Assembly: GCA_913056235.1 (NCBI GenBank)
Contig: CAJXMW010000004.1
Location: forward strand, 334,364-398,363
From: an uncultured Fodinibius sp.
Lineage (GTDB): Bacteria; Bacteroidota; Rhodothermia; Balneolales; Balneolaceae
DNA: 64,000 nucleotides
Direction: 5' to 3'
The notes beneath the pieces are model-generated. The model did not search any database, had not been told where the DNA came from, and saw nothing but the letters and a program-made list of their open reading frames with translations. Below are positions 25,542 to 46,952 of the stretch, piece after piece (positions within the stretch are counted from its first letter, which is position 1; every line of letters starts with the position of its first letter). The translations under genes were made by a program, and so were the position numbers.

Positions 25542-25560
25542 TGTAAGGTTTTTCCCTACA
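25542..25560. promoter_or_regulatory. 7-5-7 palindrome copy (TGTAAGG TTTTT CCCTACA)
   Basis: About 150 bp upstream of the sensor kinase, followed by an extra TGTAGGG half-site at 25564. Confidence 0.65.
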
Positions 25561-25708: not shown

Positions 25709-27127
25709 ATGGCTGAAAAAGGAGCAGAAGTGGCTAAAAAAATCGCCCAACATAGTACCGATACAAAGCAAATTCTTGAACACATTACCCAGTGTGTTAT
25801 TAAGACTAATCTTGATGGCATCGTTACCTACTGGAATAAAGCAAGTGAGCAGATATTTGGCTATACAAAAGAGGAGATGCTTAATGAATCGTTAATCAAA
25901 ATTTATCCAAGCGTTGCAGAAAAACAGTTTCAGGATGACTTAGAACAATTACGAAGAGGTAACGAAGTACAGGGAAAGTGGAAAAGTCTTACGAAAGACG
26001 GATCTATTGTTTGGGTTGATGTTCATGCACGTCCCTTAAATAATGCGGCAGGCAAGCCCGAAGCTATAATTGCTTCTGCCCATGATATACAGGATTTAGT
26101 TGAAATTGAAAAAGAATTGGAAGAAAGAAAAGCACAAGCCCAGGCTATCTTGGAGACTACCGTTGATGGTATTATCACTATTGACGATGATGGTCATATT
26201 CTGAGTTTTAACCAGTCAGCGTCAAGAATTTTTGGTTACAAAGAGGAGGAAGTTCTTGGAGAGAATGTAAAAATGCTTATGCCCCAACCCCATCGCAGTA
26301 AACACGATAGTTTTATGAAACGTTATGGCGAAACGGATGAAGAACGGGTTATCGGTTATCGGCGGGAATTGACTGGAAAGCGCCAGGATGGCACCTTGTT
26401 TCCAATGGAGCTGTCGGTGAGTGAGGTACAATGGAATGGGAAGCGTATTTATACAGGAGTTGTCAACGATATTAGCGAGCGACGACGACTCGAGCAAGAG
26501 ATTCTTCATATTTCTGAGGAAGAACGCCGCAGCTTGGGCCAGGATTTGCACGACGGACTCGGTCAGATGCTTACCGGCATCAGTTTGATTAGTCAAAACT
26601 TAGCCCGAAAGCTCAAATCCAATGGTATCCCCGGGGCTGATGAGGTACAAGAGATTTCGAACCTGATAAAAGAGGCAGACGAATATGCCAAGGCTCTAGC
26701 TCATGGATTGGTGCATGTTGATTTTGAAGAAGAGGGGCTACAGGCGGCCTTGCGGCAGCTCAGTGAGCAGGCTAAAAAGTTTTTCAATGTAGATTGTACA
26801 TTGAATTTTCAGGATGATTATGATATTAACAATAATATTCAGGCGATGCACTTGTATCGTATCACCCAAGAATCTATAAGTAATGCAGTGAAGCATGGGG
26901 AGGCCGAAAATATCGAAATCAACGTGAAGAGAGAAGGTGACAGAATTCAACTTTCGATTATTGATGACGGCATAGGCTTTGAAAAAGCAAGACAAAACAA
27001 TAAGAAAAAGGGTATGGGTATTCATATAATGAAATACCGCGCAAACATACTATCAGGTCACCTAGAAACAAAAGAGACCGATAATAGGAGCTATGTAGTT
27101 TGCAGCATCCCCCAAAATAATTCATAA
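25709..27127 (+). CDS. Sensor histidine kinase: two PAS domains (second FixL-like heme-PAS) + HisKA_3/HATPase
   Basis: PAS2 'LMPQPHRSKHDSFMKRYGETDEERVIGYRRELTGKRQDG..FPMELSVSE' mirrors FixL; H-box 'QDLHDGLGQML'; 'ESISNAVKHG', 'DDGIGF' and 'GMGIHIMKYRA'. Confidence 0.9.
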   Translation: MAEKGAEVAKKIAQHSTDTKQILEHITQCVIKTNLDGIVTYWNKASEQIFGYTKEEMLNESLIKIYPSVAEKQFQDDLEQLRRGNEVQGKWKSLTKDGSIVWVDVHARPLNNAAGKPEAIIASAHDIQDLVEIEKELEERKAQAQAILETTVDGIITIDDDGHILSFNQSASRIFGYKEEEVLGENVKMLMPQPHRSKHDSFMKRYGETDEERVIGYRRELTGKRQDGTLFPMELSVSEVQWNGKRIYTGVVNDISERRRLEQEILHISEEERRSLGQDLHDGLGQMLTGISLISQNLARKLKSNGIPGADEVQEISNLIKEADEYAKALAHGLVHVDFEEEGLQAALRQLSEQAKKFFNVDCTLNFQDDYDINNNIQAMHLYRITQESISNAVKHGEAENIEINVKREGDRIQLSIIDDGIGFEKARQNNKKKGMGIHIMKYRANILSGHLETKETDNRSYVVCSIPQNNS

Positions 27128-27147: not shown

Positions 27148-27819
27148 ATGGGAAATAGTTTTAAAAAACGGATTGTAATTGTAGATGATCATCCGCTGAT
27201 GCGCAAAGGGTTGGCGCAAACTCTGGAAACTGACCCTGTTTTTGAAGTCGTTGAACAACTGGACAGGGGGGAAGAGCTGATCCAGAGAATTGATGAGCTA
27301 AATCCGGATCTGATTATCGTGGATGTTTCGCTGCCCGGTATGAGTGGACTGGAACTGGTGAAGCATGTAATATCTCAAAAAGAAAATCAGAAAATGCTGG
27401 TGGTGTCACGTCACGACGAGTCGTTGTATGCCGAGCGTGTAATCCGGGCCGGCGCCAAGGGATACGTAATGAAGCTGGAGGCTGGTGAAGTTCTGCTTAA
27501 AGCGGTACGCAAGGTGCTAAACGGCGGTATCTATGTCAGCGAAGAAGTAAGTGAGCGACTGTTGATGGGCATGGCCAAAGGCCAGAAAGAGGTAATGGAA
27601 TCGCCCATCGAAAAGCTCAGCGACCGCGAGCTTGAAGTGTTTGAACTGACAGGCAAAGGCAATAGTACCCGTGAAATTGCTGAGAAGTTGCATCTGTCGG
27701 TGAAGACCGTAGAATCATATCGTGCACGCATCAAAACAAAACTTAACCTGGAGAATGCAACGGAACTGATGGTACACGCTGTAAAATGGGTTGAAACTGA
27801 GCATACGGGTAGTCTGTAA
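27148..27819 (+). CDS. NarL/LuxR-family response regulator
   Basis: 'VDDHPLMRKGL', intact phospho-Asp in 'IIVDVSLPG', and HTH 'LSDRELEVF...IAEKLHLSVKTVESYRARIKTKL'. Confidence 0.95.
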   Translation: MGNSFKKRIVIVDDHPLMRKGLAQTLETDPVFEVVEQLDRGEELIQRIDELNPDLIIVDVSLPGMSGLELVKHVISQKENQKMLVVSRHDESLYAERVIRAGAKGYVMKLEAGEVLLKAVRKVLNGGIYVSEEVSERLLMGMAKGQKEVMESPIEKLSDRELEVFELTGKGNSTREIAEKLHLSVKTVESYRARIKTKLNLENATELMVHAVKWVETEHTGSL

Positions 27820-28175: not shown

Positions 28176-28601
28176 TTGGAGTTGAACACTGGATACCAAC
28201 CAACTGTAGAGCAGTTATTACCTATTGACATGCACTGGCTACAGCAGTTGACCCGGCAAGAATGGGAGGTGCGCTCCTTGCCAACTTATTCTATGGAGGC
28301 AACGGAGTTGGTTTCAGCTTTGACGAAGGAATTGATGTTTGTATCCATCTACAAGGCGTTAGCCAGTTCACTGTCAGCGGAGAACAACAGCAGATTAACT
28401 GCTATGCAGCTGGCTGAAAAGAAAATAACGGAGATGATTGAAGACCTTACCAAAGCCTATCGGAGCCAGCGTCAAAATAATATAACCGAAGAAATCCTGG
28501 ATATTATGGCCAGTTTTGAGGTGCTGCAAACACAAGAGAAGCAACAAGTGCAATCAGCGGCAGGCCCCCGTCTACATAAACCAACCGGAAGTTCTGTGTA
28601 G
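28176..28601 (+). pseudogene. atpG: C-terminal fragment of an alternate (N-ATPase-type) F1 gamma subunit
   Basis: 'ELMFVSIYKALASSLSAENNSRLTAMQLAEKKITEMIEDL...RSQRQNNITEEILDIMASFEVL' is the gamma C-terminal signature; the N-terminal half and all other atp genes are absent. Confidence 0.8.
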
Positions 28602-28707: not shown

Positions 28708-29034
28708 ATGACTTCCAAAAAAATAACCAAACGACAATGGCAGAAGTATTTCGACACCTTTTCATTGACGTTTCTCAAAGATAAACAGCCCGAGTATATT
28801 GAAATACAAGTTATGTCGGAACAGTTAGGTGTTCAGCCCCAAACAAAGTGGACGCTACTTAAGGGAATCTCTTATGATCCCAAGAGTGACATGCTGGAAA
28901 TACAGGTTGACAAAATGGAGCATATGATCGCCCATCCCAAAGAAATATATGTAAATGAAGAAGATAATGGTTGGCTTACGGGAATGATGATCATACAAAA
29001 AGGTGGAGAACGAAATATTATCGACATTCGATAG
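28708..29034 (+). CDS. DUF5335-family protein
   Basis: 'WQKYFDTFS', 'LGVQ', 'LLKGISYDPKSDMLEI' and 'HMIAHPKEIYV'. Confidence 0.75.
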   Translation: MTSKKITKRQWQKYFDTFSLTFLKDKQPEYIEIQVMSEQLGVQPQTKWTLLKGISYDPKSDMLEIQVDKMEHMIAHPKEIYVNEEDNGWLTGMMIIQKGGERNIIDIR

Positions 29035-29118: not shown

Positions 29119-32100
29119 ATGCCCACAGACACACAAGTTCACTACAATAAACAATACCTGGAAGAGGAGATACGCCAGCTTGCCACCATCCAACAGGCTA
29201 CGCTTGATAGTAAGCCTTTACAGCCTATCAGTCCTATTATTGCGGATGCCAAAGATACATTAGTTGAAGCCTATCGTGTGTTGGCCCGTGCGGCCAAACA
29301 AAACAGAGAGCTGAGTTCGGCCGGGGAATGGTTGATTGACAACTTTTACATCATCCAGGAGCAGATGGTACAGCTTAACGCGGACCTGCCCGAATCGTAC
29401 TATCGAAAGCTTCCGCGGCTGGTTCAGGGAGAGTATCGTGGATATCCCCGTACCTTTGAGATTGTTCAGATGCTGGCGACAATCAGCGACAATACGATCG
29501 ACCAGGATAATACGACTATAGCTGTCCGGGCTTACCAAGAGATTGACACGCTTAGTTTAGCTGAGATGTGGTCAGTGCCACTAATGAATCGTCTGGCTCT
29601 GATTGTGAGGCTGGCAGAACGAGCCAAAAAGCTGCTCAGAGACCGCCGAATGCAAGATGAAATTGAAAAGATCTTACACGAAAAGATTGACGAAGAGGCA
29701 GATGAACCCGGTTATTTGCTGCGTAAGCTTTCTGAAATTGTTGGCCAACAAAACGATACTCAACGGTTTCTGGTGATATTAGCCCAACAGCTTCAAAAAA
29801 GGGGGATGCTCACTGAAAACGAGCGCCGCTGGTTCGATTATAAGTTCTCTCGTTGGGAGACAAACCTTGAAGAACAGCTTCGAGGCCGTACGCAACAAAC
29901 TTCTCGGCTCCACCTCAGCATTCAGAATGCGATCTCATCGCTGCGCGTGGTTTCAGAGACCGACTGGGCTGATTTTGTAGAAAGTTGTTCGGTGGTAGAA
30001 CGTATCCTGCGCCTGGACCCGGCGGACATGTATCACCAGATGGATTTTAGCACGCGCGACACTTATCGCAAAAAGGTTGAGAAGCTAAGTGCACATTCGA
30101 ATTTTAGCGAGCAGAAAGTAGCCGAGCAGGCGCTGCTTATGGCCGAAAGTGCTGCTCAGAATGGTGCCACCAGTAAAGGCAAAAAAGTGCATATTGGGTA
30201 CTATCTGGTCGGGGATGGATATGAAGGGCTTATCGACAAACTTAAATATAACAGGCCGTTCGACGAGTGGGTGCTGAAGAAAGGCGAAGAACAGCCAGCT
30301 ATCTACTTTTCCATTATCGGATTGCACCTGGTGATATTACTCGGAATTGTGGGACTCTTCACCAATTTTTTAATGCAAGAATGGTGGATGATTACACTGA
30401 CCCTGCTGATTACAGTTCTTCCGGCGCTTGATTTATCGATCGTGTCAACCAATCGGCTACTCTCCTTTTTTGTGTCGCCCCGGATACTACCTAAACTCGA
30501 ATTTAAGGACGAAATTCCGCATAAATATCGAACTGTAGTGATTGTTCCGACGATGCTTTCTTCCCCCCGTGATGTTGCTGATCAGTTCGAGGCACTTGAA
30601 ATCAGGGCCCTGGCCAATACGAACCCGTCGCTGCAGTTCGCTTTGTTGGCAGACTTCCATGATGCCCCGCATGAAAGTATGCAAGACGACAGCGCTATCC
30701 TGGAAGAAGCCCAACAGCAAGTTAACCGATTAAACTTGCAGTACAAGAGTAAGTATGGAGATAAATTCCTGTTCTTCCATCGAAAACGTCGCTGGAACGA
30801 AGAGGAAGACACGTGGATGGGGTGGGAGCGCAAACGGGGTAAGTTGGAAGAGTTTAATCACCTGCTAAAAAATCCCGATGCCGATACCACATATAGCATC
30901 GTAAATGATAATTTCTTGCAGACGCTTACGAAGTTTCCCCTGCAGTTTGTAATTACTCTTGATGCAGACACCAAACTGCCGCCGGGTAGTGCCCGCATGC
31001 TGATAGGTACGGCCGCCCATCCGTTAAACAGGGCAGAGGTCGATAAGGAGGGTAATATTGTTGAAAGAGGTTACGGTATTTTTCAACCCCGTATTTCTAT
31101 AGCACCGAAATCGGCGAATCGGACGTGGTTTGCGCGCATTTTTTCGGGTAATGTGGGGTTGGATCCCTATACCACGGCCGTTTCCGATATTTATCAGGAT
31201 TTGTTTGGAGAGGGCATTTTTACAGGCAAGGGATTGTATGACCTTGCTGTTTTTGAACAGGTTCTGGGTGATAAGTTTCCCGAAAATGCTATTCTCTCAC
31301 ACGATTTGCTCGAAAGTACCTATCTACGGGCGGCCTTGGTCACTGATATTGAGCTCTTTGATGCCTATCCCCGCAATTACCTGAGCTTTGCCAAACGCAA
31401 TCACCGTTGGATACGTGGGGATTGGCAAATTTTGTACTGGCTGTTTACGAAAGTACCTGCAAGAGGCCAAAGTAGTGAGTCAAATCCCATCAGTGGTATT
31501 TCAAAGTGGAAAATATTTGACAATATGCGTCGCTCGCTCAACCCGGTAGCGCTGATTATATTCTTGCTTGCCGGCTGGGTACTGCTTCCGGGATCAGCAT
31601 TCGTATGGACGGCAGCAGTATTCGGGATTCTGGCCTTTCCCATTTATTCAAGTTTTTCAACTGATATTTTTAGGCGTCCCGAACGCGTTAATTGGAAACT
31701 GTATATCGAGAAAATAAGGGCTGATCTGAAGACCAATACACTGCAGGCCGTAACAAGTTTCTTGTTTTTGCCTCACCAGGCTGCAATTTCGCTTGATGCA
31801 ATAATTCGGACATTGTATCGGATGTTTATATCGCAAAAAAAAATGTTGGAGTGGACCACGGCGAACCAAGCTGAACGCCTGCATTCAAACGGCACATTTC
31901 TGAGCTATTGGCTTAACATGTGGTTTAATATCTTTTGGGGTATTGTAAGCCTTATATTGGTCAGTATTTATCATTCAACAATATTGATCATTGCGATCCC
32001 GGTTTGCTTGGGTTGGATATTAGCTCCCGGAATAGCCTTTTATCTGACCCGTACGCCGGAGGTATTTGAGCATCGGGAGTTGCCAGAAGGGGATGTCAGG

Positions 32101-35100
32101 GAACTTCGGGGATATGCGCGGCGAACCTGGCACTTTTTTGAACAGTATATGAATGCCGAGCACTCTTGGCTACCCCCCGATAATGTACAGGAAGATCCGT
32201 ATGTAGGACCCGTGGGGCGAACATCTCCCACCAATATTGGTCTTGCTCTTGTGTCGATATATGTAGCATATGAGATGGGATACATTACCTTTTCTAAGAC
32301 CATGGAACGCTTGCAAAATATGTTGGACTCTCTGCAGGTGCTTGATCGCTATCGTGGTCATTTTTACAACTGGTACAGTACAAAGCTGGGTGAAGTGCTC
32401 AGTCCCAGTTATGTCTCTACCGTGGATTCAGGCAATCTGGCGGGTTCACTGCTGGTGATACAACAGGCATTGGAGAAAATTGGTGAGCGGCGGTGGCCGA
32501 ATCCTAGATTCTGGGATGGCCTCGAGGATACACTCATGGTTATTGATGAACTGTTGGATGAGCTGCAGGATACCGACGATTTTAAGGGGATCCATGAGTC
32601 GCTTGTGCAGGAAATGGATCAACTCAAGGCCAAGTTCCCATCCAGTACGCCTTCAAATATTGTAGATTGGCGGGACACCCTGAAGAGCCTTGCCGATAAT
32701 GCCCGAAAGTTATCAGAGGTTAACCTGTCTATACTACAAGAGGAATTTGAAGAGCTGCGGTTCAGCGAATGGAAAGACTGGCTGACTCGGCCTTATATGA
32801 TGATTTCCGATCAGCTGAGCGAGATAGAGGAGTACTCCGGCAGCAAAACACCGCATTCGTCTGTTGCCTCTGGCAATCCTCCATCAGACAATGTGAAACA
32901 TAATAAAGCGTTTGCCGGCAAGGTGAGAGTTGCGCGCGAGCTGGGAACCATTTGTCGTGATTTCGTTCAGGACATGGATTTCAGTTTGCTGTATAATGCT
33001 GATCGAGAGTTGTTTAGCATCGGCTTTAACGTAGATCGGTCGGCGCAGGATTCAAGCTATTACGATCTGTTGGCCAGTGAGGCACGGCTGGCTTCTTTTA
33101 TTGCGATTGCCAAAGGTGAAGTGCCGCCCGAGCACTGGTTCCGGCTGAGCCGGCGGCTGACGAGTATCGAGCAGAACGAGATTCTGCTTTCGTGGGGTGG
33201 CACCATGTTTGAATATCTTATGCCGCTGCTTTTTATGTCTCGGTTTGACCAGACATTATTGAGCAATACCTACGAGAATGTGGTCACCTGGCAGCGGGAT
33301 TACGGTTCACTTCGCAACCGTCCCTGGGGATTCTCAGAAAGTGGATACGCCATTCTCAATCTTGAGCTCCATTACCAGTACCGGGCCTTTGGCGTACCGG
33401 GGCTTGGCCTGCGCCGTGGTCTGGCAGAAGATTATGTAGTTGCGCCTTACGCGGGCATGTTGGCTTTGATGGTGCAGCCCTCGGAGGCGATGAAAAACCT
33501 GCGCAAGTTAAAATCTGAAGGTGCTTACGGTGCAAATGGTTTTTATGAGGCCATCGATTATACCTCTGGCCGTACGAATAATAATGGAGATCAAGAGCGA
33601 TCAGTCATCAAGATGTATATGGCGCATCACCAGGGGATGAGTCTGCTCTCGATGGTAAATATTTTGCAGGATAATCTGGTTCAGCATCTATTTCACGATC
33701 ACCCGCTGGTACGCTCCTGCGAGCTGTTGCTTCAAGAGCGAATTCCGCGTGGTATCCCCATCAAAGAACCTCGGCCGATTGATGTTGAGCTGGAGCCGGC
33801 TGAAGAGGAGAAAGTGCATGAATCGGTTGATCATGTTGGCATTGATGATCTTAACGATACACCGCCGCGAACACATATTCTGTCCAACGGCCGATATTCC
33901 ACCCTTATTACACATGCGGGAACAGGCTACTCGGTGTTTGATGAGACCATGCTTACCCGATGGCGGTCGGATGTGGTGCAAGATCAGTATGGGTTATTCT
34001 TTTATGTGCGTGATCTTGAAAGCGGGAAATACTGGTCGGTGGGGCACCAGCCGGTCAGGCGCAAAGCAGATCGCTATGACAGCTGGTTCCACGCAGGGAA
34101 GGTGCAAACTGCCCGCGTGGATGACTGGATCGAATCGTTTATGGAAGTCTGTGTTTCGCCGGAGGATGATATCGAATTGCGCAAAATTGCGTTGACTAAC
34201 TACTCTGATCGAGAGCGAAAGATTGAGTTAACTAGTTATGCTGAAGTGGTGCTTAATACCCAGCAGGCTGATATGTCGCATCCGGCATTCTCCAGCTTGT
34301 TTGTGCAGACAGAATATGTGCAACAGCATCACTCGGTATTGGCACGTCGGCGTCCCCGCGAAAGCGAAGATGAGGCGATGTGGTTGGTGCATACTATTGC
34401 CAGTGAAGACATGGAAGGGGAAGGCAACATGCTGCAGGTCGAAACAGATCGGTCAAATTTTATTGGTCGCAACCGGTCGTTGCAAAATCCCAGAGTTATG
34501 GATCGCAGCGTTAAGCTCAGCGGCACAGTGGGGAACGTAAAAGACCCGATTTTAAGCTTGAGGTGTGTTGTGACGCTGGCTCCCGGTGAAAAGAAGAATA
34601 TAACCTTTGGCCTTGGCCGGGTTAATACACGCGAAGAAGCTGTTAAGATGGGAGATCGGTACGATAATCCCTATTCCACCGATCGCGTGTTTGAGCTTGC
34701 CTCGATATATGGAAGTGTGGAGATGGAGCAAATTAATATTTCAAGCGATCAGGCCAATTATTTTCAGCAGCTGGCCGGCCATCTTATTTTTAATTCACCT
34801 GATCTAAGAGCTAGTGAGGATATTCTCAAACGAAATAGGCGACAGCAACCGGGGCTTTGGGCCCATAGCATTTCGGGCGATGTGCCCATCCTGGTGTATC
34901 ATATCGAGGATACCAAGTTCATTCGCCAGGTGGAGTTGCTACTTAAGGCACATACGTTCTGGCACCATAAGGGATTAAAGATTGATCTTGTTTTTATGAA
35001 CGACCATCCCCCGTCGTATGCGGATGAGTTGCAGGAAGCCATACATCAGAAGATACAGTTTTCATCAGAGCGACAGAAATTTCGGGAACGAGGAGGGATA

Positions 35101-37752
35101 TTTGTGATTCGTTCGGACGAATTAAGTCCGGATGAGCGCACTTTGATTGATTCTGTGGCTAGTGTGGTGCTGAAAGGCAAGCTGCCGAGTTTGAACTCAC
35201 TCAATGGGATATCCAATGTTCGACAAGACGAGAATTTATATCATCCGGTGGATCAGAACCAGTTCGATTATGCTTGTGCTCCCGATAGCGATGATCTGAA
35301 ACTCTTTAATGGCTATGGCGGTTTTACGGCCAAGGGCCAAGAATATGTTATTCGGCTTTGCATGGATCCAGAGACCCAGACTATGAACTATCCGCCGTCT
35401 CCTTGGATTAATGTGATTGCCAATCCTGATTTTGGGTTTATCACCTCTGAGAAGGGATCGGGATACACCTGGAGCCAGAACAGTCGTGAAAATAAGCTCA
35501 CGCCATGGTCGAATGACGCAGTCTTGGATCCCACAGGAGAAGCAATATATATCCGGGATGAAAAAGAGCATATCTTCTGGTCTCCGCTGCCGGAACCGGT
35601 AGCAGGAAGTGGGTTTTACGAGATTCGTCACGGCTTTGGGTATTCGACCTATTGCAGCAAAACCTTGAACGTGGAGCAGGACGTGCGAAAATGGGTATCC
35701 AAAGATGAGTCTATAAAATTTGTAAAGCTCCGATTGTCGAATACTGATCTGATGAGCAAGAAATTGTCGATCTTTCGATATGTGGATTGGGTGTTGGGGG
35801 TATTTCGGGAGGAGTCAACTCGCTATGTACATACAAGCTTCGATTCCGGTTTGCAGGCGGTTTTCGCCCGTAATCATTATAACAATGAGTTCGCCGGACG
35901 TCTGGCATTTTCTGCCCTGTACACGCCCCATCAGTTTGAGTTTGACAGCTTTACCGCGAATCGACAGGATTTTATTGGGCGAAATCGCTCGCTTCATGAT
36001 CCCAAAACTATTGCCCAGGATCAGCAGCTAAGTCAAGAATTTGGGATTGGCTTTGAATCATGTGCAGCATCCCAAATTACATTTAATTTGGATTCTGGAA
36101 AATCAATCGACCTGTACTTTTTACTGGGAGAGGCAGAAGATGAAGGAGAGGCTTGCAAGCTGATCGAAAAATATCGGAGCGCGGAAGCCATTGATCATTC
36201 ATTCGACATAGTAAAACAGTTTTGGAAGCAAAAATTTTCTCGTATTCAGGTAAAAACGCCCTTGCCAGAATTCAATTACCTGGCCAATGGCTGGTTGCAG
36301 TATCAAAATATTGCCTGCCGCATATGGGGCCGTACTGGTTTCTATCAGGCTGGTGGTGCTTTTGGATTCCGCGACCAGTTACAGGATTCAATGGCGGCGT
36401 GCTACCTGGATCCGGAGTTGACCAGGAAACAAATATTACTGCATGCACGTCACCAATTTATGGAGGGTGATGTGTTGCACTGGTGGCATCCCCCCACCGA
36501 TCGGGGCATTCGTTCCCGCATTACCGATGATCTGTTATGGCTGCCTTATGTAACGGATAATTATATCCGTCATACTGGAGATTCCTCAATTTTAAAAGAG
36601 GAATTACCGTTTGTTACAGCGCGTCAGCTGAAAGAGCATGAACATGAAGCCTATCTACAACCTGAAACTACAGAGCAGGTGGCAAGCTTGTATGAACATT
36701 GTTGCCGGGCCATCGACCGCTCACTCACGGTTGGGGATCACGGGTTACCGCTTATCGGTGCCGGCGACTGGAATGATGGGATGAACAAGGTGGGCATTGA
36801 AGGCAAAGGAGAGAGCATCTGGCTGGGATTTTTCCTGTATGATATCTTAGAATCGTTTATTCCAATTTGTAAACGGCGTAAAGATGAGGAGCGAGCCCAA
36901 AAGTATAGCACCTACCAACAGGAACTAAAACAAAAACTCAACAGCAAAGGCTGGGATGGCGAATGGTATCTTCGAGCCTATTACGATGACGGAACGCCGC
37001 TGGGATCAAGTGAAAACGACGAATGTTGCATTGACGCTATTGCTCAGTCGTGGTCGGTCATTTCCGGTGCTGGTACGCCCCAAAAGATACGCAAAGCATT
37101 GCAGTCCGCGGATGAGCATTTAGTCTCAGAGCCGGAGGGCATCATCCGTCTGTTGACTCCCGCTTTTGATAAGACGGAGAAGAATCCTGGATATATCAAA
37201 GGGTACATCCCCGGCGTGCGTGAAAATGGTGGCCAATATACCCACGCTGCCTTGTGGCTGGTAAAAGCATTTGCCGAAAGTGGTAACCGCGAACGTGCGG
37301 CAAAATTGTTGCAGATGCTGACGCCCGTGAATCACACTCTACTAGAGCAGGATGTGCAGCGCTATAATGTGGAGCCCTATGCGGTTGCAGCAGATATTTA
37401 TGGTGAAGCACCACTTACCGGTATGGGGGGCTGGACGTGGTATACTGGTTCGGCCGGATGGATGTACCGGGTGATGGTAGAATCGGTCCTGGGATTCCAG
37501 ATCTTAAAGGGAAACACCTTGCGGATTTCTCCATTTATTTCCCCCAACTGGAAGCGATACAGCATAACCATTCGACGTATGGATGGGGAAACAGAATACA
37601 ATATTATGGTGGTAAACTCTCAAAAGCGGTCTAAAGGAACTCTTTCGGCACAGCTCGACGGTAACAAAATTACTGTTAAAAAGAATGCCGTTGAGGTTAA
37701 AATGACCAATGACGGTAACTTACATGAACTCCGGGTAGAAGTTGGAGATTGA
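29119..37752 (+). CDS. ndvB: Cyclic beta-1,2-glucan synthase-like protein (GT84 + glucoamylase-like + GH94 phosphorylase domains; NdvB/ChvB/Cgs family)
   Basis: 2877 aa with 'GWERKRGKL', 'VITLDADT', 'LSHDLLE', 'RWIRGDWQ', 'RTSPTNIG', 'SWGGTMFEYLMP', 'YQAGGAFGFRDQLQD', 'GDWNDGM', 'ENGGQYTH' and 'GWTWYTGSAGW'. Confidence 0.92.
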   Translation: MPTDTQVHYNKQYLEEEIRQLATIQQATLDSKPLQPISPIIADAKDTLVEAYRVLARAAKQNRELSSAGEWLIDNFYIIQEQMVQLNADLPESYYRKLPRLVQGEYRGYPRTFEIVQMLATISDNTIDQDNTTIAVRAYQEIDTLSLAEMWSVPLMNRLALIVRLAERAKKLLRDRRMQDEIEKILHEKIDEEADEPGYLLRKLSEIVGQQNDTQRFLVILAQQLQKRGMLTENERRWFDYKFSRWETNLEEQLRGRTQQTSRLHLSIQNAISSLRVVSETDWADFVESCSVVERILRLDPADMYHQMDFSTRDTYRKKVEKLSAHSNFSEQKVAEQALLMAESAAQNGATSKGKKVHIGYYLVGDGYEGLIDKLKYNRPFDEWVLKKGEEQPAIYFSIIGLHLVILLGIVGLFTNFLMQEWWMITLTLLITVLPALDLSIVSTNRLLSFFVSPRILPKLEFKDEIPHKYRTVVIVPTMLSSPRDVADQFEALEIRALANTNPSLQFALLADFHDAPHESMQDDSAILEEAQQQVNRLNLQYKSKYGDKFLFFHRKRRWNEEEDTWMGWERKRGKLEEFNHLLKNPDADTTYSIVNDNFLQTLTKFPLQFVITLDADTKLPPGSARMLIGTAAHPLNRAEVDKEGNIVERGYGIFQPRISIAPKSANRTWFARIFSGNVGLDPYTTAVSDIYQDLFGEGIFTGKGLYDLAVFEQVLGDKFPENAILSHDLLESTYLRAALVTDIELFDAYPRNYLSFAKRNHRWIRGDWQILYWLFTKVPARGQSSESNPISGISKWKIFDNMRRSLNPVALIIFLLAGWVLLPGSAFVWTAAVFGILAFPIYSSFSTDIFRRPERVNWKLYIEKIRADLKTNTLQAVTSFLFLPHQAAISLDAIIRTLYRMFISQKKMLEWTTANQAERLHSNGTFLSYWLNMWFNIFWGIVSLILVSIYHSTILIIAIPVCLGWILAPGIAFYLTRTPEVFEHRELPEGDVRELRGYARRTWHFFEQYMNAEHSWLPPDNVQEDPYVGPVGRTSPTNIGLALVSIYVAYEMGYITFSKTMERLQNMLDSLQVLDRYRGHFYNWYSTKLGEVLSPSYVSTVDSGNLAGSLLVIQQALEKIGERRWPNPRFWDGLEDTLMVIDELLDELQDTDDFKGIHESLVQEMDQLKAKFPSSTPSNIVDWRDTLKSLADNARKLSEVNLSILQEEFEELRFSEWKDWLTRPYMMISDQLSEIEEYSGSKTPHSSVASGNPPSDNVKHNKAFAGKVRVARELGTICRDFVQDMDFSLLYNADRELFSIGFNVDRSAQDSSYYDLLASEARLASFIAIAKGEVPPEHWFRLSRRLTSIEQNEILLSWGGTMFEYLMPLLFMSRFDQTLLSNTYENVVTWQRDYGSLRNRPWGFSESGYAILNLELHYQYRAFGVPGLGLRRGLAEDYVVAPYAGMLALMVQPSEAMKNLRKLKSEGAYGANGFYEAIDYTSGRTNNNGDQERSVIKMYMAHHQGMSLLSMVNILQDNLVQHLFHDHPLVRSCELLLQERIPRGIPIKEPRPIDVELEPAEEEKVHESVDHVGIDDLNDTPPRTHILSNGRYSTLITHAGTGYSVFDETMLTRWRSDVVQDQYGLFFYVRDLESGKYWSVGHQPVRRKADRYDSWFHAGKVQTARVDDWIESFMEVCVSPEDDIELRKIALTNYSDRERKIELTSYAEVVLNTQQADMSHPAFSSLFVQTEYVQQHHSVLARRRPRESEDEAMWLVHTIASEDMEGEGNMLQVETDRSNFIGRNRSLQNPRVMDRSVKLSGTVGNVKDPILSLRCVVTLAPGEKKNITFGLGRVNTREEAVKMGDRYDNPYSTDRVFELASIYGSVEMEQINISSDQANYFQQLAGHLIFNSPDLRASEDILKRNRRQQPGLWAHSISGDVPILVYHIEDTKFIRQVELLLKAHTFWHHKGLKIDLVFMNDHPPSYADELQEAIHQKIQFSSERQKFRERGGIFVIRSDELSPDERTLIDSVASVVLKGKLPSLNSLNGISNVRQDENLYHPVDQNQFDYACAPDSDDLKLFNGYGGFTAKGQEYVIRLCMDPETQTMNYPPSPWINVIANPDFGFITSEKGSGYTWSQNSRENKLTPWSNDAVLDPTGEAIYIRDEKEHIFWSPLPEPVAGSGFYEIRHGFGYSTYCSKTLNVEQDVRKWVSKDESIKFVKLRLSNTDLMSKKLSIFRYVDWVLGVFREESTRYVHTSFDSGLQAVFARNHYNNEFAGRLAFSALYTPHQFEFDSFTANRQDFIGRNRSLHDPKTIAQDQQLSQEFGIGFESCAASQITFNLDSGKSIDLYFLLGEAEDEGEACKLIEKYRSAEAIDHSFDIVKQFWKQKFSRIQVKTPLPEFNYLANGWLQYQNIACRIWGRTGFYQAGGAFGFRDQLQDSMAACYLDPELTRKQILLHARHQFMEGDVLHWWHPPTDRGIRSRITDDLLWLPYVTDNYIRHTGDSSILKEELPFVTARQLKEHEHEAYLQPETTEQVASLYEHCCRAIDRSLTVGDHGLPLIGAGDWNDGMNKVGIEGKGESIWLGFFLYDILESFIPICKRRKDEERAQKYSTYQQELKQKLNSKGWDGEWYLRAYYDDGTPLGSSENDECCIDAIAQSWSVISGAGTPQKIRKALQSADEHLVSEPEGIIRLLTPAFDKTEKNPGYIKGYIPGVRENGGQYTHAALWLVKAFAESGNRERAAKLLQMLTPVNHTLLEQDVQRYNVEPYAVAADIYGEAPLTGMGGWTWYTGSAGWMYRVMVESVLGFQILKGNTLRISPFISPNWKRYSITIRRMDGETEYNIMVVNSQKRSKGTLSAQLDGNKITVKKNAVEVKMTNDGNLHELRVEVGD

Positions 37753-37780
37753 TTTTTTGCTGAAAAAAGACGGGAACTTT

Positions 37781-37799
37781 TGTAGGAGTAATACTTACA
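37781..37799. promoter_or_regulatory. 7-5-7 palindrome copy (TGTAGGA GTAAT ACTTACA)
   Basis: Intergenic, about 105 bp upstream of the CheB-like gene; extra TGTAGGG half-site at 37827. Confidence 0.6.
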
Positions 37800-37903
37800 A
37801 TTAGAAGGTATATGATCGTACAATATTGTAGGGTTGTAGTATCTATAATTGAACATCAGCTGAAAAATAAATACCCCAGAAAAGGTGAGTTAAGCGGGTT
37901 TAA

Positions 37904-39049
37904 TTGGAGGGTCTTATGGATTCAATCAAAGTGCTTATCCTAGATGAAAATGTACTTGTTAGACGTGCTGTATCAAATATTCTAAATAAATATGATGTAT
38001 TCGATGTATTTTGGATGGCCGATCGGTCGCAGGATGTTACAGAAGTGATAAATCAGAATTATCCGGATGTAGCGTTGCTGAACATCGATAATATGGAGTC
38101 CTCCGGTTTTACTATCCTGAATACGCTGCGTATGAATTTTCCAAATTTGCCGGTCATTGTCATTTCTCCACGTGATAATGAAGGAGCCGAAGCCGCAATT
38201 AATGCCCTGCGAATGGGAGCGATTGATTTTATCAGCAAACCGGCACACAAGAACCTGATACTATTTGCAGAACGACACCTTGAAAAGCGACTTGGTCCCA
38301 TTATCAAGGCAGCGAAGAAAATTCGTGAACGGCATCATTTGAACGAGGAGATCCTGCAAACGCTGGTTCATCCCCAAAAAACGTTTGAACAAATTGGTAG
38401 TGATCCCAAAGCAGATACCCCTGCGGAACTGGTCGTGATAGGTGGATGCACGGGGGGCACACAAACACTGTTTTCGCTGATTTCAGAATTGCCGGATGAT
38501 TTGGAAGTGCCTGTGGTTGTTGTGCAACACCTGCCGCGCATATATACGGCATACTTGGCCCAAAAATTAGATTCCGTGGCTCATGTTAACGTGCGTGAAG
38601 TACAGGATGGAGATCCGCTAGAGGGAGGTAATGTATGGATAGCACCTGGTGGTTATCAGTGTGAAGTAGGGTTGTCAGGTTATCAAAAAGTGTTGAAAAC
38701 ACATCGGGGCATGCGCGAAAATAATATGCGGCCTTCTATCGACATCCTTTTCCGGTCTGCAGCTAAAGTATATGGCAAGAAGACGCTCGGGATATTATTG
38801 AGTGGCTGTGGCTATGATGGGCTGTCGGGCGCAGAAGATATTCGAAATATGGGTGGACAACTTATTACACAGGATCCACGAACTGCCATAGCTGCCGAGC
38901 TTCCGCTTGCCGCTATCCGTAATGGGTTGACCAGAGAGTATTATTCACCGGAAGACTTAGCTAAACAAATTGTATATCGAGTTGCTCGTGTTAATGAGAC
39001 TTCTGTTGAGGGGGAAACCGATAGGGTTGGCAGTTCACTTTTATTTTAG
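37904..39049 (+). CDS. cheB: CheB-like REC + methylesterase protein with atypical active sites
   Basis: REC 'KVLILDE...ALLNIDNM...GAIDFISKP'; esterase 'VVIGGCTGG', 'VVQHLP', 'RPSIDILFRS', 'LLSGCGYDG' and 'QDPRTA'. Confidence 0.85.
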   Translation: MEGLMDSIKVLILDENVLVRRAVSNILNKYDVFDVFWMADRSQDVTEVINQNYPDVALLNIDNMESSGFTILNTLRMNFPNLPVIVISPRDNEGAEAAINALRMGAIDFISKPAHKNLILFAERHLEKRLGPIIKAAKKIRERHHLNEEILQTLVHPQKTFEQIGSDPKADTPAELVVIGGCTGGTQTLFSLISELPDDLEVPVVVVQHLPRIYTAYLAQKLDSVAHVNVREVQDGDPLEGGNVWIAPGGYQCEVGLSGYQKVLKTHRGMRENNMRPSIDILFRSAAKVYGKKTLGILLSGCGYDGLSGAEDIRNMGGQLITQDPRTAIAAELPLAAIRNGLTREYYSPEDLAKQIVYRVARVNETSVEGETDRVGSSLLF

Positions 39050-39105
39050 TGAAAAAAATAAATAGAAGCTATATACCAGCGCAAATAGCTGGAGTGTAAA
39101 TACAG

Positions 39106-41769
39106 ATGGACAGATCAGGTGATGGTAAAGTAAACATACAATCTCCATGGTCGCTGGAAAAAGAGACGGTACTTGAGAAGCTGAACAGTGATGCGCAGCA
39201 AGGCTTGTCAGAATCGGAAGTAACCCGGCGTCTGCAAGATTATGGTCCTAATGTGCTGAGGAGACATGAAGAAAGGAGTCTACTGAGTATTTTGTGGGAT
39301 CAGTTCAAAAGTATCATTATTGCACTTCTTGTAGCCGCGGCTCTATTTGCGTTTTGGCTGGGCGAAATTATCGACGGTTCGGCCATTGTCGTTGTAATTC
39401 TGTTGAATACCTTGATTGGTTTTGTTACCGAGTTACGGGCCGTACGATCCATGGAGGCCCTCTTCAAATTGGGTGAAGTTAAAACGCGGGTACTCCGTGG
39501 TGGTAACGTACAAGAGATCGATGCCCAGAAGCTGGTTCCCGGTGATATTGTGCTTGTTGAGGGTGGGGATATTATTACTGCTGATATGCGAATTGTTGAT
39601 AGCTCAAAACTCCAGGCCGATGAATCGGCATTAACTGGAGAAAGCCTCCCTGTTACGAAGAAAAATAAGGCCGTTGCGGCTGATACGGTACTTGCAGAAC
39701 GCAGTAGTATGCTGTACAAAGGTACAGCGGTTACGCGCGGGGCCGGTGAAGCTGTCGTGGTTGCGACCGGCTTGCAAACAGAACTTGGGCATATTTCATC
39801 GCTTGTAGAAGAGGCCGAAGATGAGCAGACGCCGCTGCAGGAACGTCTTGATACACTCGGCTATCGGCTGATTGGAGTGACGCTTGTTATTGCAGTTTTT
39901 GTAATCGGATCGGGTATAGTAGCTGGTAAAAAAATGTACCTGATGATAGAGACTGGTATAGCTTTGGCCGTAGCAGCTATTCCGGAGGGCCTACCCATTG
40001 TGGCAACCATTGCACTGGCCAAAGGCGTCCGCATTATGGGTAAGAAAAATGCCCTCATCAACAGACTTTCGTCGGTTGAGACATTAGGCTCAACCGGAGT
40101 GATCTGTACGGACAAAACCGGCACTCTGACAGAGAACAAAATGACGGTAACACAGATATATCTGCCAGATAGAGAGCCGGTGAAGCCTGAAAAGGATCTT
40201 GATTCCGGGGATGAGCAGCACGACAGCAAATTGGATGCTGATATTAGACTCGCACTTGAAACTGGTACTCTTTGTAATAATGCTACGCTTAACACCAAAG
40301 AGGATGATGGGACCGGCGATCCGATGGAGATCGCTTTGTTACAAGTGGCACGTAAAGGGGGAGTGGATATCGCAGAACTAAGCCATCGCTATCCCGAAGA
40401 AAGGGAAGAGGCTTTTGATCCTGAAGTTAAAATGATGGCTACCTGGAATCAGCAGGAAAAGGGTTTTAAGGTGAGCGTAAAAGGAGCTCCAGGTGCCGTC
40501 TTGGAAGCCTGCAGTACCGTTATGATGGATGGCAATACTATGGCTTTGGACGAAGAACAAAGACAACATTGGCAGAAGGTTAATGAAGATCTAGCCGCCC
40601 AGGGATTACGTATTATCGGTCTTGCCGTAAAAGAAGTGGAAGAGGTTGACGGAAATCCATACCAGGATTTATCGTGGGTTGGATTAGTAGCTCTCGCTGA
40701 TCCCCCGCGGACCGACATCAAGCCCGTTATAGAGCAGTGCTATCAGGCAGGGATACGAGTTGTGATGGTAACGGGTGATCAGGTAGCGACGGCTAAATAT
40801 ATAGCAGAATCAATTGGGTTACAGAATGCCGATCTGGTCATCCACGGGAATGAGCTGGTAACCGATACTGATAAATCAAATTCAGAGTTGTTGAAGGCCG
40901 CAGTTTTTGCTCGCATAAGCCCACAGCAAAAACTTGATCTTATTGGTCTGTTTCAGGGTCAGGGACAGATTGTGGCTATGACTGGCGACGGCGTTAATGA
41001 TGCCCCCGCTCTCAAAAAAGCCGATATTGGTATAGCTATGGGACAGCGTGGGACACAGGTGGCTCGCGAAGCAGCTGATATGGTGCTCACAGATGATGCT
41101 TTTTCATCCATTGTGACTGCCATTGAACAGGGAAGGGTCATCTTTGGGAACATCCGACGGTTTATCTATTACCTAATGTCGTGTAATGTTAGTGAAGTGA
41201 TGGTAGTTGGATTGGCGTCGTTGTTAGGTACACCGTTACCCATCCTGCCGCTGCAAATCCTTTTCTTAAATCTGGTGACCGATGTATTTCCAGCTCTAGC
41301 CCTTGGCGTGGGCGAAGGCGAAGAAGGAATTATGCAGCATCCGCCGCGCGATCCGGATAATCCTATCCTTGGCAAAAAGCAATGGTTAGGTATTGCTTTC
41401 TATGGTTTCATAATCACACTTTCTGTGTTGGGAGCCCTGTTTATTGCCTTGCATTATCTGGAATTGCCTGCTCGTGAGGCGGTAACAATTTCTTTTGTAA
41501 CACTGGCAATGGCCCAGCTGTGGCATGTGTTCAATATGATTGGCCCAAATGCAAACCTTTTTGATAACACCATCACCCGGAATCCATACATTTGGGGAGC
41601 GTTGGTACTTTGTTTAGGATTATTGGGAGTAGCACTTTATGTACCTGCAATAGCAAGTGTACTAGAGGTAAGTGCCCCACATTTATATGGATGGATCACC
41701 GTGCTGGGAATGAGCTTGATCCCGTTTGTAGTAGGGCGGTTAAGAAAGGTTCGGTCATTGGGTGAATAA
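39106..41769 (+). CDS. Cation-translocating P-type ATPase (type II, Ca2+/CtpF-like)
   Basis: 'ALTGES', 'VAAIPEGLP', 'CTDKTGT', 'MVTGD', 'GDGVNDAPAL' and 'LNLVTDVFPALALG'. Confidence 0.95.
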   Translation: MDRSGDGKVNIQSPWSLEKETVLEKLNSDAQQGLSESEVTRRLQDYGPNVLRRHEERSLLSILWDQFKSIIIALLVAAALFAFWLGEIIDGSAIVVVILLNTLIGFVTELRAVRSMEALFKLGEVKTRVLRGGNVQEIDAQKLVPGDIVLVEGGDIITADMRIVDSSKLQADESALTGESLPVTKKNKAVAADTVLAERSSMLYKGTAVTRGAGEAVVVATGLQTELGHISSLVEEAEDEQTPLQERLDTLGYRLIGVTLVIAVFVIGSGIVAGKKMYLMIETGIALAVAAIPEGLPIVATIALAKGVRIMGKKNALINRLSSVETLGSTGVICTDKTGTLTENKMTVTQIYLPDREPVKPEKDLDSGDEQHDSKLDADIRLALETGTLCNNATLNTKEDDGTGDPMEIALLQVARKGGVDIAELSHRYPEEREEAFDPEVKMMATWNQQEKGFKVSVKGAPGAVLEACSTVMMDGNTMALDEEQRQHWQKVNEDLAAQGLRIIGLAVKEVEEVDGNPYQDLSWVGLVALADPPRTDIKPVIEQCYQAGIRVVMVTGDQVATAKYIAESIGLQNADLVIHGNELVTDTDKSNSELLKAAVFARISPQQKLDLIGLFQGQGQIVAMTGDGVNDAPALKKADIGIAMGQRGTQVAREAADMVLTDDAFSSIVTAIEQGRVIFGNIRRFIYYLMSCNVSEVMVVGLASLLGTPLPILPLQILFLNLVTDVFPALALGVGEGEEGIMQHPPRDPDNPILGKKQWLGIAFYGFIITLSVLGALFIALHYLELPAREAVTISFVTLAMAQLWHVFNMIGPNANLFDNTITRNPYIWGALVLCLGLLGVALYVPAIASVLEVSAPHLYGWITVLGMSLIPFVVGRLRKVRSLGE

Positions 41770-42342: not shown

Positions 42343-42747
42343 ATGTGGCTGTGCATGAAGTATGAAATTCCTGAGATGCTGAAAGGTAGAGAAGGTGCCA
42401 TCGTGAATGTATCATCTATAGCGGGACTCTTGGGCTCAACGGGTATTCCGGCATATGTATCCAGCAACCACTGAATCAATAGCTTAACAAAAACCGCGGC
42501 CTTGGATTATGCTGATAAAAAACTTCGTATTAATTCCGTATGTCCGGGTGCAATTCAAACGCCCATGATTGATAGGTTTGTGGGAGGAGCGACAAAAGAA
42601 CGCAATGAGTTGGTTGCCCAATATCCGATGGGCAGATTTGGTCGGTCGCAAGAAGTAGCGGAAGCCATTGTCTGGTTTTATTCCAACAAAGCATCATTTA
42701 TCACTGGTCAAACATTGGCCGTTGACGGTGAATTTATAGTACATTAA
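42343..42747 (+). pseudogene. SDR-family oxidoreductase, C-terminal half with internal stop
   Basis: WLCMKYEIPEML..GAIVNVSSIAGL..GIPAYVSSNH*INSLTKTAALDYA..RINSVCPGAIQTPM; in-frame TGA at 42472-42474; the N-terminal Rossmann part is missing. Confidence 0.8.
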
Positions 42748-45698: not shown

Positions 45699-46820
45699 TT
45701 AGATGGAGTTGACCCTCAGCTGCCAGAAGTAACTAAACAGTGTACCAAGGCCGAAGAATATCAGTAACAGGTTGAGAAATGGACCTGCATAGGGCAGGGC
45801 TGTGAGTATGGCAATTAATATCATACCGAGGGCCAGTCCCCAGAAATAATCAGTATAGACTTCTGTGGCTTTGAAATAACGGATGCTTTTGGTTCCCAGT
45901 GTCAGAGCTACCAGCAAGAAGCTTACAAACAGGGCCAGGCCGTAGAGCATCATCACAATGAACGAAAGCGGAATAGTGAGGATGAGGACTATCAGAATGA
46001 TGATAGCGATGGGGATAGCCAGGAATAACAGTAATCCCAGACCGGTGTTCCGTAGGTAACGTTCGGTCGAAAAGCGGTACAGGTCGGTCATCGTTTCGCG
46101 GAATACCAGAATCAGAATAATGCCAATAATAAGCATCGACACATAGAACCAAATGCTGAAGAGTAGTGCCGTTCCCCAGGCTTCATCGGGATCCTCGACA
46201 ATGATATTCAAATCTGCCGGCGCATTTTTGATGTCTTCTCTGGTAATCTCATGTGGAGTTGAAATGGTTGTACTTGAGGCCGGCTTATAAGCTTCACCGA
46301 ATGCAATATCATTGCCGTAGAGTTCTACAAAGTTGTTTGCCGTTCCATTGACCATAATATCGTTGCCGGCGATCCGCAGCCAACCGTCCACGGTTCCCCC
46401 TTCGAAGATGATCTCATTGCCGGCCAGCGCTACATTGCCCCTGATGTGTGCATTCGCCGCTATCCGAACCTCATTGCCCGCTGCAAAGAGGTCGCCTGCC
46501 ACTTCACCATCGATGACGATTGTTTCTCCGGCAGCTATCAGCATATCGCCAACCGAGCCCCGGAGCGTTACCGACTGTGCTACAACGATAGCATCATCGC
46601 TTACCAAGCCGTGAATGGTCAGGTTGCGCGAAGCTGCAAAAATATCATCACCGAGATATCCAAATACATCCACGAACTGCCCGGCTGCTATTACATTCGT
46701 TGAAATCGTATCACTTTCATTAATTCGCACGGTGGTTCCAAATCGGTAGTCCGATCCCTGTGCTACCAAAAGTACCGGTAATGCCAACGCCATCATTCCC
46801 GTCAAGATGAATTGTCTCAT
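45699..46820 (-). CDS. Polymer-forming cytoskeletal (bactofilin-like beta-helix) membrane protein
   Basis: Signal peptide; repeats '(I/V)xGxVxDD(A/L)xxAG', 'IDGEVAGDLFAAG' and 'AHIRGNV'; C-terminal multi-TM region ending 'FGLGTL'. Confidence 0.75.
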   Translation of the reverse strand: MRQFILTGMMALALPVLLVAQGSDYRFGTTVRINESDTISTNVIAAGQFVDVFGYLGDDIFAASRNLTIHGLVSDDAIVVAQSVTLRGSVGDMLIAAGETIVIDGEVAGDLFAAGNEVRIAANAHIRGNVALAGNEIIFEGGTVDGWLRIAGNDIMVNGTANNFVELYGNDIAFGEAYKPASSTTISTPHEITREDIKNAPADLNIIVEDPDEAWGTALLFSIWFYVSMLIIGIILILVFRETMTDLYRFSTERYLRNTGLGLLLFLAIPIAIIILIVLILTIPLSFIVMMLYGLALFVSFLLVALTLGTKSIRYFKATEVYTDYFWGLALGMILIAILTALPYAGPFLNLLLIFFGLGTLFSYFWQLRVNSI

Positions 46821-46933
46821 AATGAACTCCCTTAGTTGTTTGGCCAAAGTTATTTATAGGCAGAATAATTATTTAACGAATGGCATTTTGCAGGATGATA
46901 CCGCCGATACTGTACCGGATAGAAGGTAATTTC

Positions 46934-46952
46934 TGTAGGTATTTTGCCTACA
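46934..46952. promoter_or_regulatory. 7-5-7 palindrome copy (TGTAGGT ATTTT GCCTACA; extends to TTCTGTAGG...CCTACAGAA)
   Basis: About 110 bp upstream of the bactofilin-like gene; the most perfect copy. Confidence 0.65.

Follow-up and report, generated by a model that had tools for sequence, protein, structure and literature searches.

What might a CheB-like protein do when both the catalytic serine and the phospho-accepting aspartate of CheB have been replaced and its gene stands apart from the chemotaxis genes? This question is raised by an open reading frame (ORF) at 37904-39049 on the plus strand of a 64,000-nucleotide stretch of DNA (hereafter the window) from an uncultured Fodinibius sp. 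(contig CAJXMW010000004.1, positions 334,364 to 398,363). A preliminary description, made from the letters of the window, presented the product as an orphan CheB with cysteine at the nucleophile position and asparagine at the phospho-acceptor position. The gene is inherited together with cgs, the gene for a cyclic glucan synthase (Cgs), which in most cases is its immediate upstream neighbour. Such co-inheritance, with cgs and not with chemotaxis genes, suggests that the protein is an unrecognised accessory factor in the synthesis of osmoprotective glucan; there is about an even chance that it is a phosphorylation-independent Cys-His-Asp hydrolase acting as an accessory regulator of Cgs.

Domain structure and key residues of the CheB-like protein

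The ORF at 37904-39049 was confirmed, and its longest form, starting from a TTG at 37904, gives a translation of 381 residues. Since a GGAGG at 37906-37910 precedes the ATG at 37916, this ATG is the likely start, so that the gene (37916-39049, plus strand) would encode a protein of 377 residues. Pfam searches of the 381-residue translation identify Response_reg (PF00072, 5.8e-16) at residues 10-119 and CheB_methylest (PF01339, 1.7e-49) at residues 177-356, the latter covering the profile over its full length (1-174 of 174). The receiver (REC) domain is encoded by 37943-38272 and the catalytic domain by 38444-38983, both on the plus strand. The NCBIfam models of CheB match the whole length of the protein below their cut-offs, NF001965 at 260.9 bits against 293 and NF009206 at 208.9 against 342. 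The AlphaFold model, for which an alignment of 33 rows was used, has a mean predicted local distance difference test score (pLDDT) of 87.4 and a predicted template modelling score (pTM) of 0.86. Foldseek superimposes this model on full-length CheB structures (PDB codes: 6ymz and 1a2o) with template modelling (TM) scores of 0.80-0.81, and its catalytic domain on that of Thermotoga CheB (PDB code: 3sft) with a root mean square deviation of 1.2 Å. The architecture of CheB, with an N-terminal receiver and a C-terminal CheB_methylest domain in the CheB fold, is thus found by both Pfam and Foldseek, and the CheB-like packing of the two domains is preserved in the predicted model.

Residue correspondences were taken from a HMMER alignment to Salmonella CheB (1a2o). 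GGCTGG aligns with GASTGG and places Cys178 (TGC at 38447-38449) on Ser164, and so the Ser-His-Asp triad of CheB is not present as such. QHLP aligns with QHMP and GCGYDG with GMGNDG, placing His205 (38528-38530) on His190 and Asp301 (38816-38818) on Asp286, so that the triad histidine and aspartate are retained. In the receiver, ALLNIDN aligns with LTLDVEM, placing Asn56 (AAC at 38081-38083) on Asp56, and Asp10-Glu11 aligns with Asp10-Asp11, which leaves the protein without the acidic pair and the acceptor aspartate of the CheB receiver. With asparagine at the acceptor and glutamate at the second acidic position, the domain is probably a pseudo-receiver and, judged from its residues, is not phosphorylatable at position 56. 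A cluster of proteins at 99% identity (P0002), present on 4 contigs, carries the identical cysteine and asparagine, and a read error is excluded for this reason. The two replacements and the retained histidine and aspartate given in the preliminary description are therefore borne out by the alignment at the codons that it named.

Conservation of the cysteine nucleophile in a divergent clade

The preliminary description proposed that homologs be collected and compared for conservation of the cysteine and for gene neighbourhood, and named drift private to one strain as the outcome that would speak against a meaningful substitution. Reading the genomes of the family Balneolaceae yields 78 distinct CheB-like genes, 25 of them canonical and 53 belonging to a divergent clade. 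All 25 canonical genes lie in che operons and encode Asp-Asp, the acceptor aspartate and the catalytic serine, the serine codon being TCN in 25 of 25. The nucleophile position of the 53 divergent genes is occupied by cysteine in 50, serine in two and glycine in one. Among the 50 distinct Cys-type genes the cysteine codon is TGT in 30 and TGC in 20; since both codons are in use, they have turned over synonymously under conservation of the amino acid. The two serine codons of the clade are AGT, a single step from TGT and not from TCN, which would fit a Cys-for-Ser exchange that preserves a nucleophile. The cysteine is retained across 33-81% identity, the reading frame is intact in 53 of 53 genes, and the columns without variation in the clade alignment include the motifs of the nucleophile, the histidine and the aspartate as well as the linker helix (H121, K124, R125 and neighbours). 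With cysteine in 50 of 53 genes through both codons, with cgs recurring in the loci whose neighbourhoods were inspected, and with both residues shared by the cluster at 99% identity, the substitutions are neither drift private to this strain nor read errors. In a quick maximum-likelihood search over 79 rows (LG+G4), the canonical genes and the divergent clade are separated by a branch of length 1.5 with support 100, the tree being unrooted and so not showing the order of events.

The residue spectrum was read in detail from the 46 genes that adjoin cgs. Cysteine is the nucleophile in 42 of them, serine in two and glycine in two; the triad histidine is found in 46 of 46, and the triad aspartate in 45 of the 45 rows that cover its column. 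The receiver varies far more at the acceptor, which is Gly in 24, Asp in 10, Ser in seven, Ala in two, Glu in two and Asn in one. The first acidic residue is Asp in 39, Glu in six and His in one, the second is Asp in 1 of 46, and the conserved lysine of the receiver is kept in 40 of 46. With the acceptor aspartate absent from 36 of 46 genes and the second acidic aspartate from all except one, a non-phosphorylatable receiver, as the preliminary description supposed, is most likely for this protein. Its emphasis on asparagine holds for the protein in the window, whereas in the 46 genes asparagine is just one of several replacements, glycine being the most frequent among them.

Searches beyond these genomes extend the pattern. 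Among the best 120 metagenomic clusters from a search space of 5.8 billion proteins, 67 have cysteine at the nucleophile column and 49 have the canonical Asp/Ser combination, the other four being Gly/Gly, Ser/Ser, Gly/Ser and Asn/Ser (acceptor/nucleophile). The acceptor column of the 67 Cys clusters holds Ser in 39, Asn in 10, Gly in 10, Asp in four, Ala in one and Lys in one, and is truncated in two. The named Cys-type members among these best 120 clusters come without exception from Balneolaceae, Balneolales, Fodinibius, Aliifodinibius or Halalkalibaculum, and each is annotated as CheB. The top 150 representatives (at 50% identity) of a profile search of the whole library comprise 101 canonical Asp/Ser and 49 divergent-type proteins, the histidine and the aspartate being nearly invariant apart from one proline and one truncation. 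The features expected of a thiol hydrolase, namely a cysteine at the nucleophile elbow with histidine and aspartate in the triad positions, are accordingly all present and appear to be under selection.

Separation from chemotaxis

The genome from which the window derives contains a complete che operon on another contig (C1), encoding a CheY-like protein, CheX, CheA, CheR, CheD, CheC/X, a canonical CheB, CheY, CheW and two methyl-accepting chemotaxis proteins (MCPs). The CheB of this operon has Asp-Asp, the acceptor aspartate and the catalytic serine, and the genome has 3 MCP genes. Genome-wide, the matches to MCPsignal, CheW and CheR all lie on C1 and none on the contig of the window (C4), and there are no chemotaxis genes among the large ORFs of the window. 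The statement that the window holds no cheA, cheW, cheR or MCP gene is hence correct. The term orphan holds insofar as no che genes stand nearby, but because a canonical CheB stands in the che operon on C1, the gene is better described as a second, non-che paralog.

A stronger separation is seen in five genomes of the same genus that are 97-100% complete. In these the cgs-linked gene is the sole CheB-like gene, and the MCPsignal domain is found in 0 of 5. No CheR domain is present in three of the five, and in the other two it occurs only inside proteins of about 1100 residues. The suggestion that the protein has been repurposed outside chemotaxis is supported by these carriers, all of which are without the MCP signalling domain.

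Co-inheritance with the cyclic glucan synthase gene

The gene directly upstream, cgs (29119-37752, plus strand), encodes a protein of 2877 residues that matches Agrobacterium tumefaciens Cgs (PDB code: 8rf9) over residues 48-2844 with E = 0 and 1919.7 bits. GH94 and Glycoamylase domains are recognised by Pfam, and the cyclization domain (PDB code: 8wy1) is matched at 2.1e-121, so that the similarity to Cgs extends over the full length and includes both the cyclase and the GH94 parts.

Among the relatives whose loci were read with 20 kb of context, cgs lies directly upstream of the CheB-like gene and on the same strand in 19 of 20. In total it is directly upstream in 46 genomes, with one ORF intervening in three (loci L078, L101 and L103). 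In two further genomes (G112 and G134) it is on the same contig at distances of 12 kb and 78 kb, and in three the adjacency could not be judged because of contig ends. With the synthase as the point of reference, cgs is present in 50 of 151 genomes of the family, and 47 of these 50 carry a gene of the divergent clade. The exceptions are two genomes with no such gene downstream of cgs (G015 and G108) and one in which cgs is at a contig end (G139). No gene of the cgs-linked type occurs in any of the 101 cgs-lacking genomes whose best match was read, six genomes with only weak matches (E of 1e-42 or worse) having been left unread. The preliminary description had named Cgs as one of two candidates for a pull-down experiment; its relevance stands, and it was understated there, cgs being the defining partner directly upstream.

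A second Cys-type lineage, of about 360 residues with an AGCLGG motif, is encoded divergently to nuoA-B-C-D-H-I in six genomes (loci L063, L066, L067, L069, L071 and L085). It forms a fully supported sub-clade, and four cgs-lacking genomes carry only this lineage.

The linkage reaches beyond the family. Within the class, of which 301 genomes were sampled, the cgs-linked gene is found in two genomes of a second family of the order, with cysteine as the nucleophile and the acceptor aspartate kept, and in one genome of another family, with glycine as the nucleophile and glutamate as the acceptor. Conserved synteny is thus seen both across the family and in two additional families of the class. 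Of twelve cgs loci collected from other families of the class, 11 extend 1.1 kb or more past cgs on its downstream side, and none of these 11 has a CheB-like gene there. Outside the class, a 401-genome sample of the phylum yielded no match at E 1e-55 or better. Since Cgs works without the CheB-like protein in many lineages, the CheB-like protein is an accessory.

Possible mechanism and alternative explanations

These observations lead to a working model in which the protein would be a catalytically active thiol hydrolase that, like CheB, would most plausibly deamidate protein glutamine or hydrolyse glutamyl esters. Its cysteine thiolate would work in the unusual N-delta-type geometry of the CheB triad. 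According to a survey of catalytic triads, CheB is one of three exceptions among serine triads that are configured through N-delta, and cysteine triads occur in both configurations (PMC9825947), and so by analogy a thiol nucleophile may be chemically unremarkable on the CheB scaffold. The degenerate receiver would take no phosphate and could still gate or dock the catalytic domain, because the receiver and the linker helix are conserved and the predicted model keeps the CheB-like packing. Control might be exerted through partner binding or through transcription, by way of the upstream palindrome and possibly a LuxR-type regulator. The target would be Cgs, perhaps the helical N-terminal domain that it has in the cytoplasm, or else a protein that works together with Cgs; the CheB-like protein would then regulate osmoprotective glucan synthesis as an accessory and would not belong to the core of the synthase. 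An active enzyme is favoured because the cysteine is selected, because it exchanges with serine, and because the histidine, aspartate and elbow motifs are invariant; the catalytic part of this model is slightly better than an even bet. The most specific form, in which a CheB-type enzyme with a cysteine nucleophile and a phosphorylation-dead receiver covalently edits the N-terminal domain of Cgs by deamidation or de-esterification and thereby sets synthase activity under osmotic or ionic stress, must be considered rather unlikely.

An interaction with the synthase was examined by a three-chain structure prediction with custom alignments. Cgs residues 1-395 and the DUF5335 protein encoded upstream of cgs were modelled together with the CheB-like protein, which was the chain scored. 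Its score was 0.43 against 0.00 for the best of 3 controls, and 0.00 once the Cgs N-terminal domain was replaced, with at least 60% contact agreement between runs and a partner pLDDT of at least 78, which amounts to weak support. In the calibration, 116 of 157 solved complexes and 2 of 215 mismatched pairs reached the mark, and scores of 0.60 or under comprised only 18 of the 157 solved complexes together with both passing mismatches. Unless an interaction was probable to begin with, a pass at 0.60 or under is therefore wrong more often than it is right. The DUF5335 protein was dropped as a partner, the score being 0.00 with the Cgs N-terminal domain replaced and DUF5335 kept.

Several observations weigh against an active hydrolase directed at Cgs. 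The docking of the CheB-like protein to the Cgs N-terminal domain receives weak support from the predicted complex. The cysteine is not universal among orthologs, glycine taking its place in two of the 46 cgs-linked genes (genomes G047 and G315), and the 49 divergent-type representatives among the top 150 of the library search have Cys in 37, Ser in four, Gly in five and Asp in three. Ten of the 46 members keep the acceptor aspartate, and so the loss of phosphorylation is not clade-wide. Position 298, which is methionine in 25 of 25 canonical CheBs, is Cys in 12, Gly in nine, Ser in six and Tyr in four of the 46 cgs-linked genes and otherwise other residues, and position 249 is likewise variable, with Cys in 14 of 46, suggesting that the pocket has been remodelled or is under relaxed constraint. 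In A. tumefaciens the glucan primer is O-linked to Tyr694 of Cgs according to the structure paper (PMC10901819), and such a link offers no ester that a CheB-type enzyme could cleave; attachment of the primer to Cgs through a glutamyl ester is on this account ruled out as the substrate.

The same variability lends substance to a pseudoenzyme or adaptor, in which the old substrate groove, its histidine and aspartate retained for binding, and the conserved receiver-linker surface would bind and regulate Cgs or another partner of the cluster and the cysteine would be retained on structural or redox grounds. The two cgs-linked genes with glycine are otherwise intact and syntenic, glycine and aspartate together account for eight of the 49 divergent-type representatives, and the methionine at 298 that canonical CheBs keep invariant varies freely. 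The degenerate receiver, the invariant linker helix and the weak predicted docking to the Cgs N-terminal domain would also suit an adaptor. Set against this are the retention of cysteine in 50 of 53 clade genes through both codons and over 33-81% identity, the finding that in the genomes the only other frequent residue is serine, one step from cysteine, which is the pattern expected of a needed nucleophile, and the rank of the triad motifs among the most conserved columns. A pseudoenzyme is thus possible, with a chance clearly smaller than that of an active hydrolase. The preliminary description had offered both; the data lean towards the active enzyme. Its further suggestion of redox sensitivity finds no specific support, the nearby Cys249 and Cys298 being present in only 14 and 12 of the 46 genes, and neither a Cys178-Cys298 nor a Cys178-Cys249 disulfide can be general on these counts.

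Two other explanations were considered. Were it a second, ordinary chemotaxis CheB acting on chemoreceptors and encoded away from the che operon, the fold and the domain order would be as in CheB, as they are, and the genome does have the che operon and MCP genes for it to serve. However, the same-genus carriers keep the gene without any MCPsignal domain, its presence follows cgs and not the che genes, the acceptor aspartate is absent, the score falls below the NCBIfam cut-off, and the long, fully supported branch separates it from the CheBs of che operons; this explanation is largely refuted and very improbable. A decaying gene or a sequencing artefact, the substitutions being neutral drift in a dying paralog, could appeal to the broken neighbours in some relatives, with cgs split in one genome (G136) and fragmented in another (G089). 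Yet the intact frame in every clade gene, the synteny in three families, the synonymous turnover of the cysteine codon and the independent cluster at 99% identity with the same residues speak against it. On these conservation data, decay or artefact is refuted.

Upstream element and neighbouring genes

The spacer between cgs and the CheB-like gene is 163 bases long and holds TGTAGGAGTAATACTTACA at 37781-37799, followed by CGTACA at 37817-37822. This element on the plus strand, TGTAGG-N7-CTTACA then CGTACA (37781-37822), is a candidate operator or promoter of the CheB-like gene. By eye, the arrangement of the palindrome and CGTACA is recognisable in the cgs-cheB spacers of 7 of 9 relatives. The strict form of the element is found once in the genome; for the relaxed form TGTARG-N7-CYTACA there are 6 copies, where composition predicts 1.1. 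Of these, three stand in the window, at 25542-25560 upstream of a PAS histidine kinase gene, at 37781-37799 upstream of the CheB-like gene and at 46934-46952 between divergent genes, and three are outside it, at C1:736656, C2:545036 and C7:15522, one of these standing between a tandem-Usp gene and a 151-residue gene. The palindrome regulon to which the preliminary description wired the gene gains some substance from this excess and from the three copies in the window; that the LuxR-type regulator encoded nearby binds the palindrome is a guess.

Other candidate signals in the region do not stand out. A perfect palindrome, TACAATATTGTA at 37819, is not enriched: with 2 mismatches at most allowed, there are 6 matches where 3.1 are expected, a count of 6 also being reached in 10 of 100 shuffles. 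The window shows no recurring perfect 6+6 inverted repeat, and an automated repeat scan at its settings reported no inverted repeat. A scan of 37600-39200 for promoters and terminators is at chance level: promoter-like sites number 5 where 3.7 are expected, and terminator-like sites 1 where 1.1 are expected.

Several neighbours recur with the gene. A DUF5335 gene (28708-29034, plus strand; 108 residues, PF17269 at 7.5e-27) precedes cgs, and homologs lie upstream of cgs in 11 of 20 loci. Downstream, at 39106-41769 on the plus strand, is the gene for a type IIA (Ca2+-type) P-type ATPase of 887 residues, whose best match, TIGR01522, is below the cut-off; such an ATPase is encoded within the next two downstream genes in 13 of 20 loci. 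The ATPase was the other pull-down candidate of the preliminary description, and across the 20 loci it is a less constant neighbour than cgs. The PAS histidine kinase gene (25709-27127, plus strand), with the palindrome TGTAAGGTTTTTCCCTACA upstream at 25542, is followed by the gene for a LuxR-family response regulator (27148-27819, plus strand), and this pair adjoins the CheB-like gene or its Usp neighbour in five loci (L050, L057, L058, L060 and L061). The recurrent neighbours, namely DUF5335, a tandem Usp protein, the type IIA P-type ATPase, a HAD-DUF87 protein and the PAS kinase with the LuxR-type regulator, together look like an osmotic or ionic stress cluster. The HAD-DUF87 protein, of 590 residues, combines a HAD phosphatase (Hydrolase_3/S6PP) with DUF87 and DUF5752 and is encoded beside a 284-residue tandem Usp protein (L100:11862-13631, also in L033, L037 and L101); its phosphatase part hints at compatible-solute metabolism.

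Some genes of these loci are broken or partial. In one relative (G136, locus L035) cgs is split into two ORFs, and in another (G089, locus L046) it is in eight pieces and the ATPase gene is also broken, the CheB-like gene being intact; the latter genome is 81% complete with 7% contamination, and assembly errors are possible. In the window, a 141-residue ORF at 28176-28601 (plus strand), between the LuxR-type regulator gene and the DUF5335 gene, matches only the last third of the F1 ATP synthase gamma subunit (PF00231, 179-284 of 285) and looks like a gene remnant on this partial match. An 81-residue ORF at 42502-42747 (plus strand) is a C-terminal fragment of a short-chain dehydrogenase (PF13561, 160-233 of 236). 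At 45699-46847 on the minus strand, a predicted membrane protein of 382 residues has a weak bactofilin-like match (9.3e-4, below the cut-off); its gene is syntenic in several relatives, and one palindrome stands 87 bases upstream of it.

Comparison with known systems

The closest known system is CheB itself. The protein shares with the Salmonella (1a2o), Pectobacterium (6ymz) and Thermotoga (3sft) enzymes the two-domain architecture and the fold, and it keeps the triad histidine and aspartate and the GxxTGG elbow, QH(M/L)P and GxGxDG motifs. It differs from them in having cysteine for the serine nucleophile, in the loss of the phospho-acceptor aspartate and of the second Mg-binding aspartate, in scoring below the NCBIfam cut-offs, and in a genetic setting without CheA, CheW, CheR and MCP genes, the gene being present in genomes that lack MCPs and co-inherited with cgs. 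CheB is treated as a chemosensory marker, and annotation names every member chemotaxis protein CheB, as with the named relatives here. The clade shows that the fold has taken on a different task in bacteria in which chemoreceptors may be missing, so that the label is wrong for them. The clade also constitutes a natural experiment on the choice of nucleophile in the N-delta-configured triad of CheB.

CheD is the cysteine-hydrolase receptor deamidase of chemotaxis and acts on chemoreceptors. If the CheB-like protein is an active hydrolase, it may likewise be a thiol-based protein deamidase, in an unrelated fold and family (PF01339, whereas CheD is PF03975). Pseudo-receivers, that is, atypical receiver domains without the acceptor aspartate, are also a known concept. 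Like these, the domain retains the receiver fold and has another residue at the acceptor, with the conserved lysine present in most members; it differs in being fused to a CheB-type catalytic domain. Searches of the literature found no link of CheB with cyclic glucan synthase, no description of a Cys-type CheB among the papers listed, which besides the triad survey were protease papers of no relevance, no CheB methylesterase joined to a pseudo-receiver and no report on a glucan synthase of Balneolaceae.

The product of the upstream gene is a full-length homolog of A. tumefaciens Cgs (8rf9). The passages on Cgs in the paper reporting this structure mention no CheB-like partner and leave the regulation of Cgs open (PMC10901819). 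Cyclic glucan is important in adaptation to osmotic conditions and, in other phyla, in interaction with hosts. If covalent editing of Cgs were true, the protein of the window would be the first enzyme of the CheB family to act on something other than a receptor, and Cgs would have its first dedicated protein regulator.

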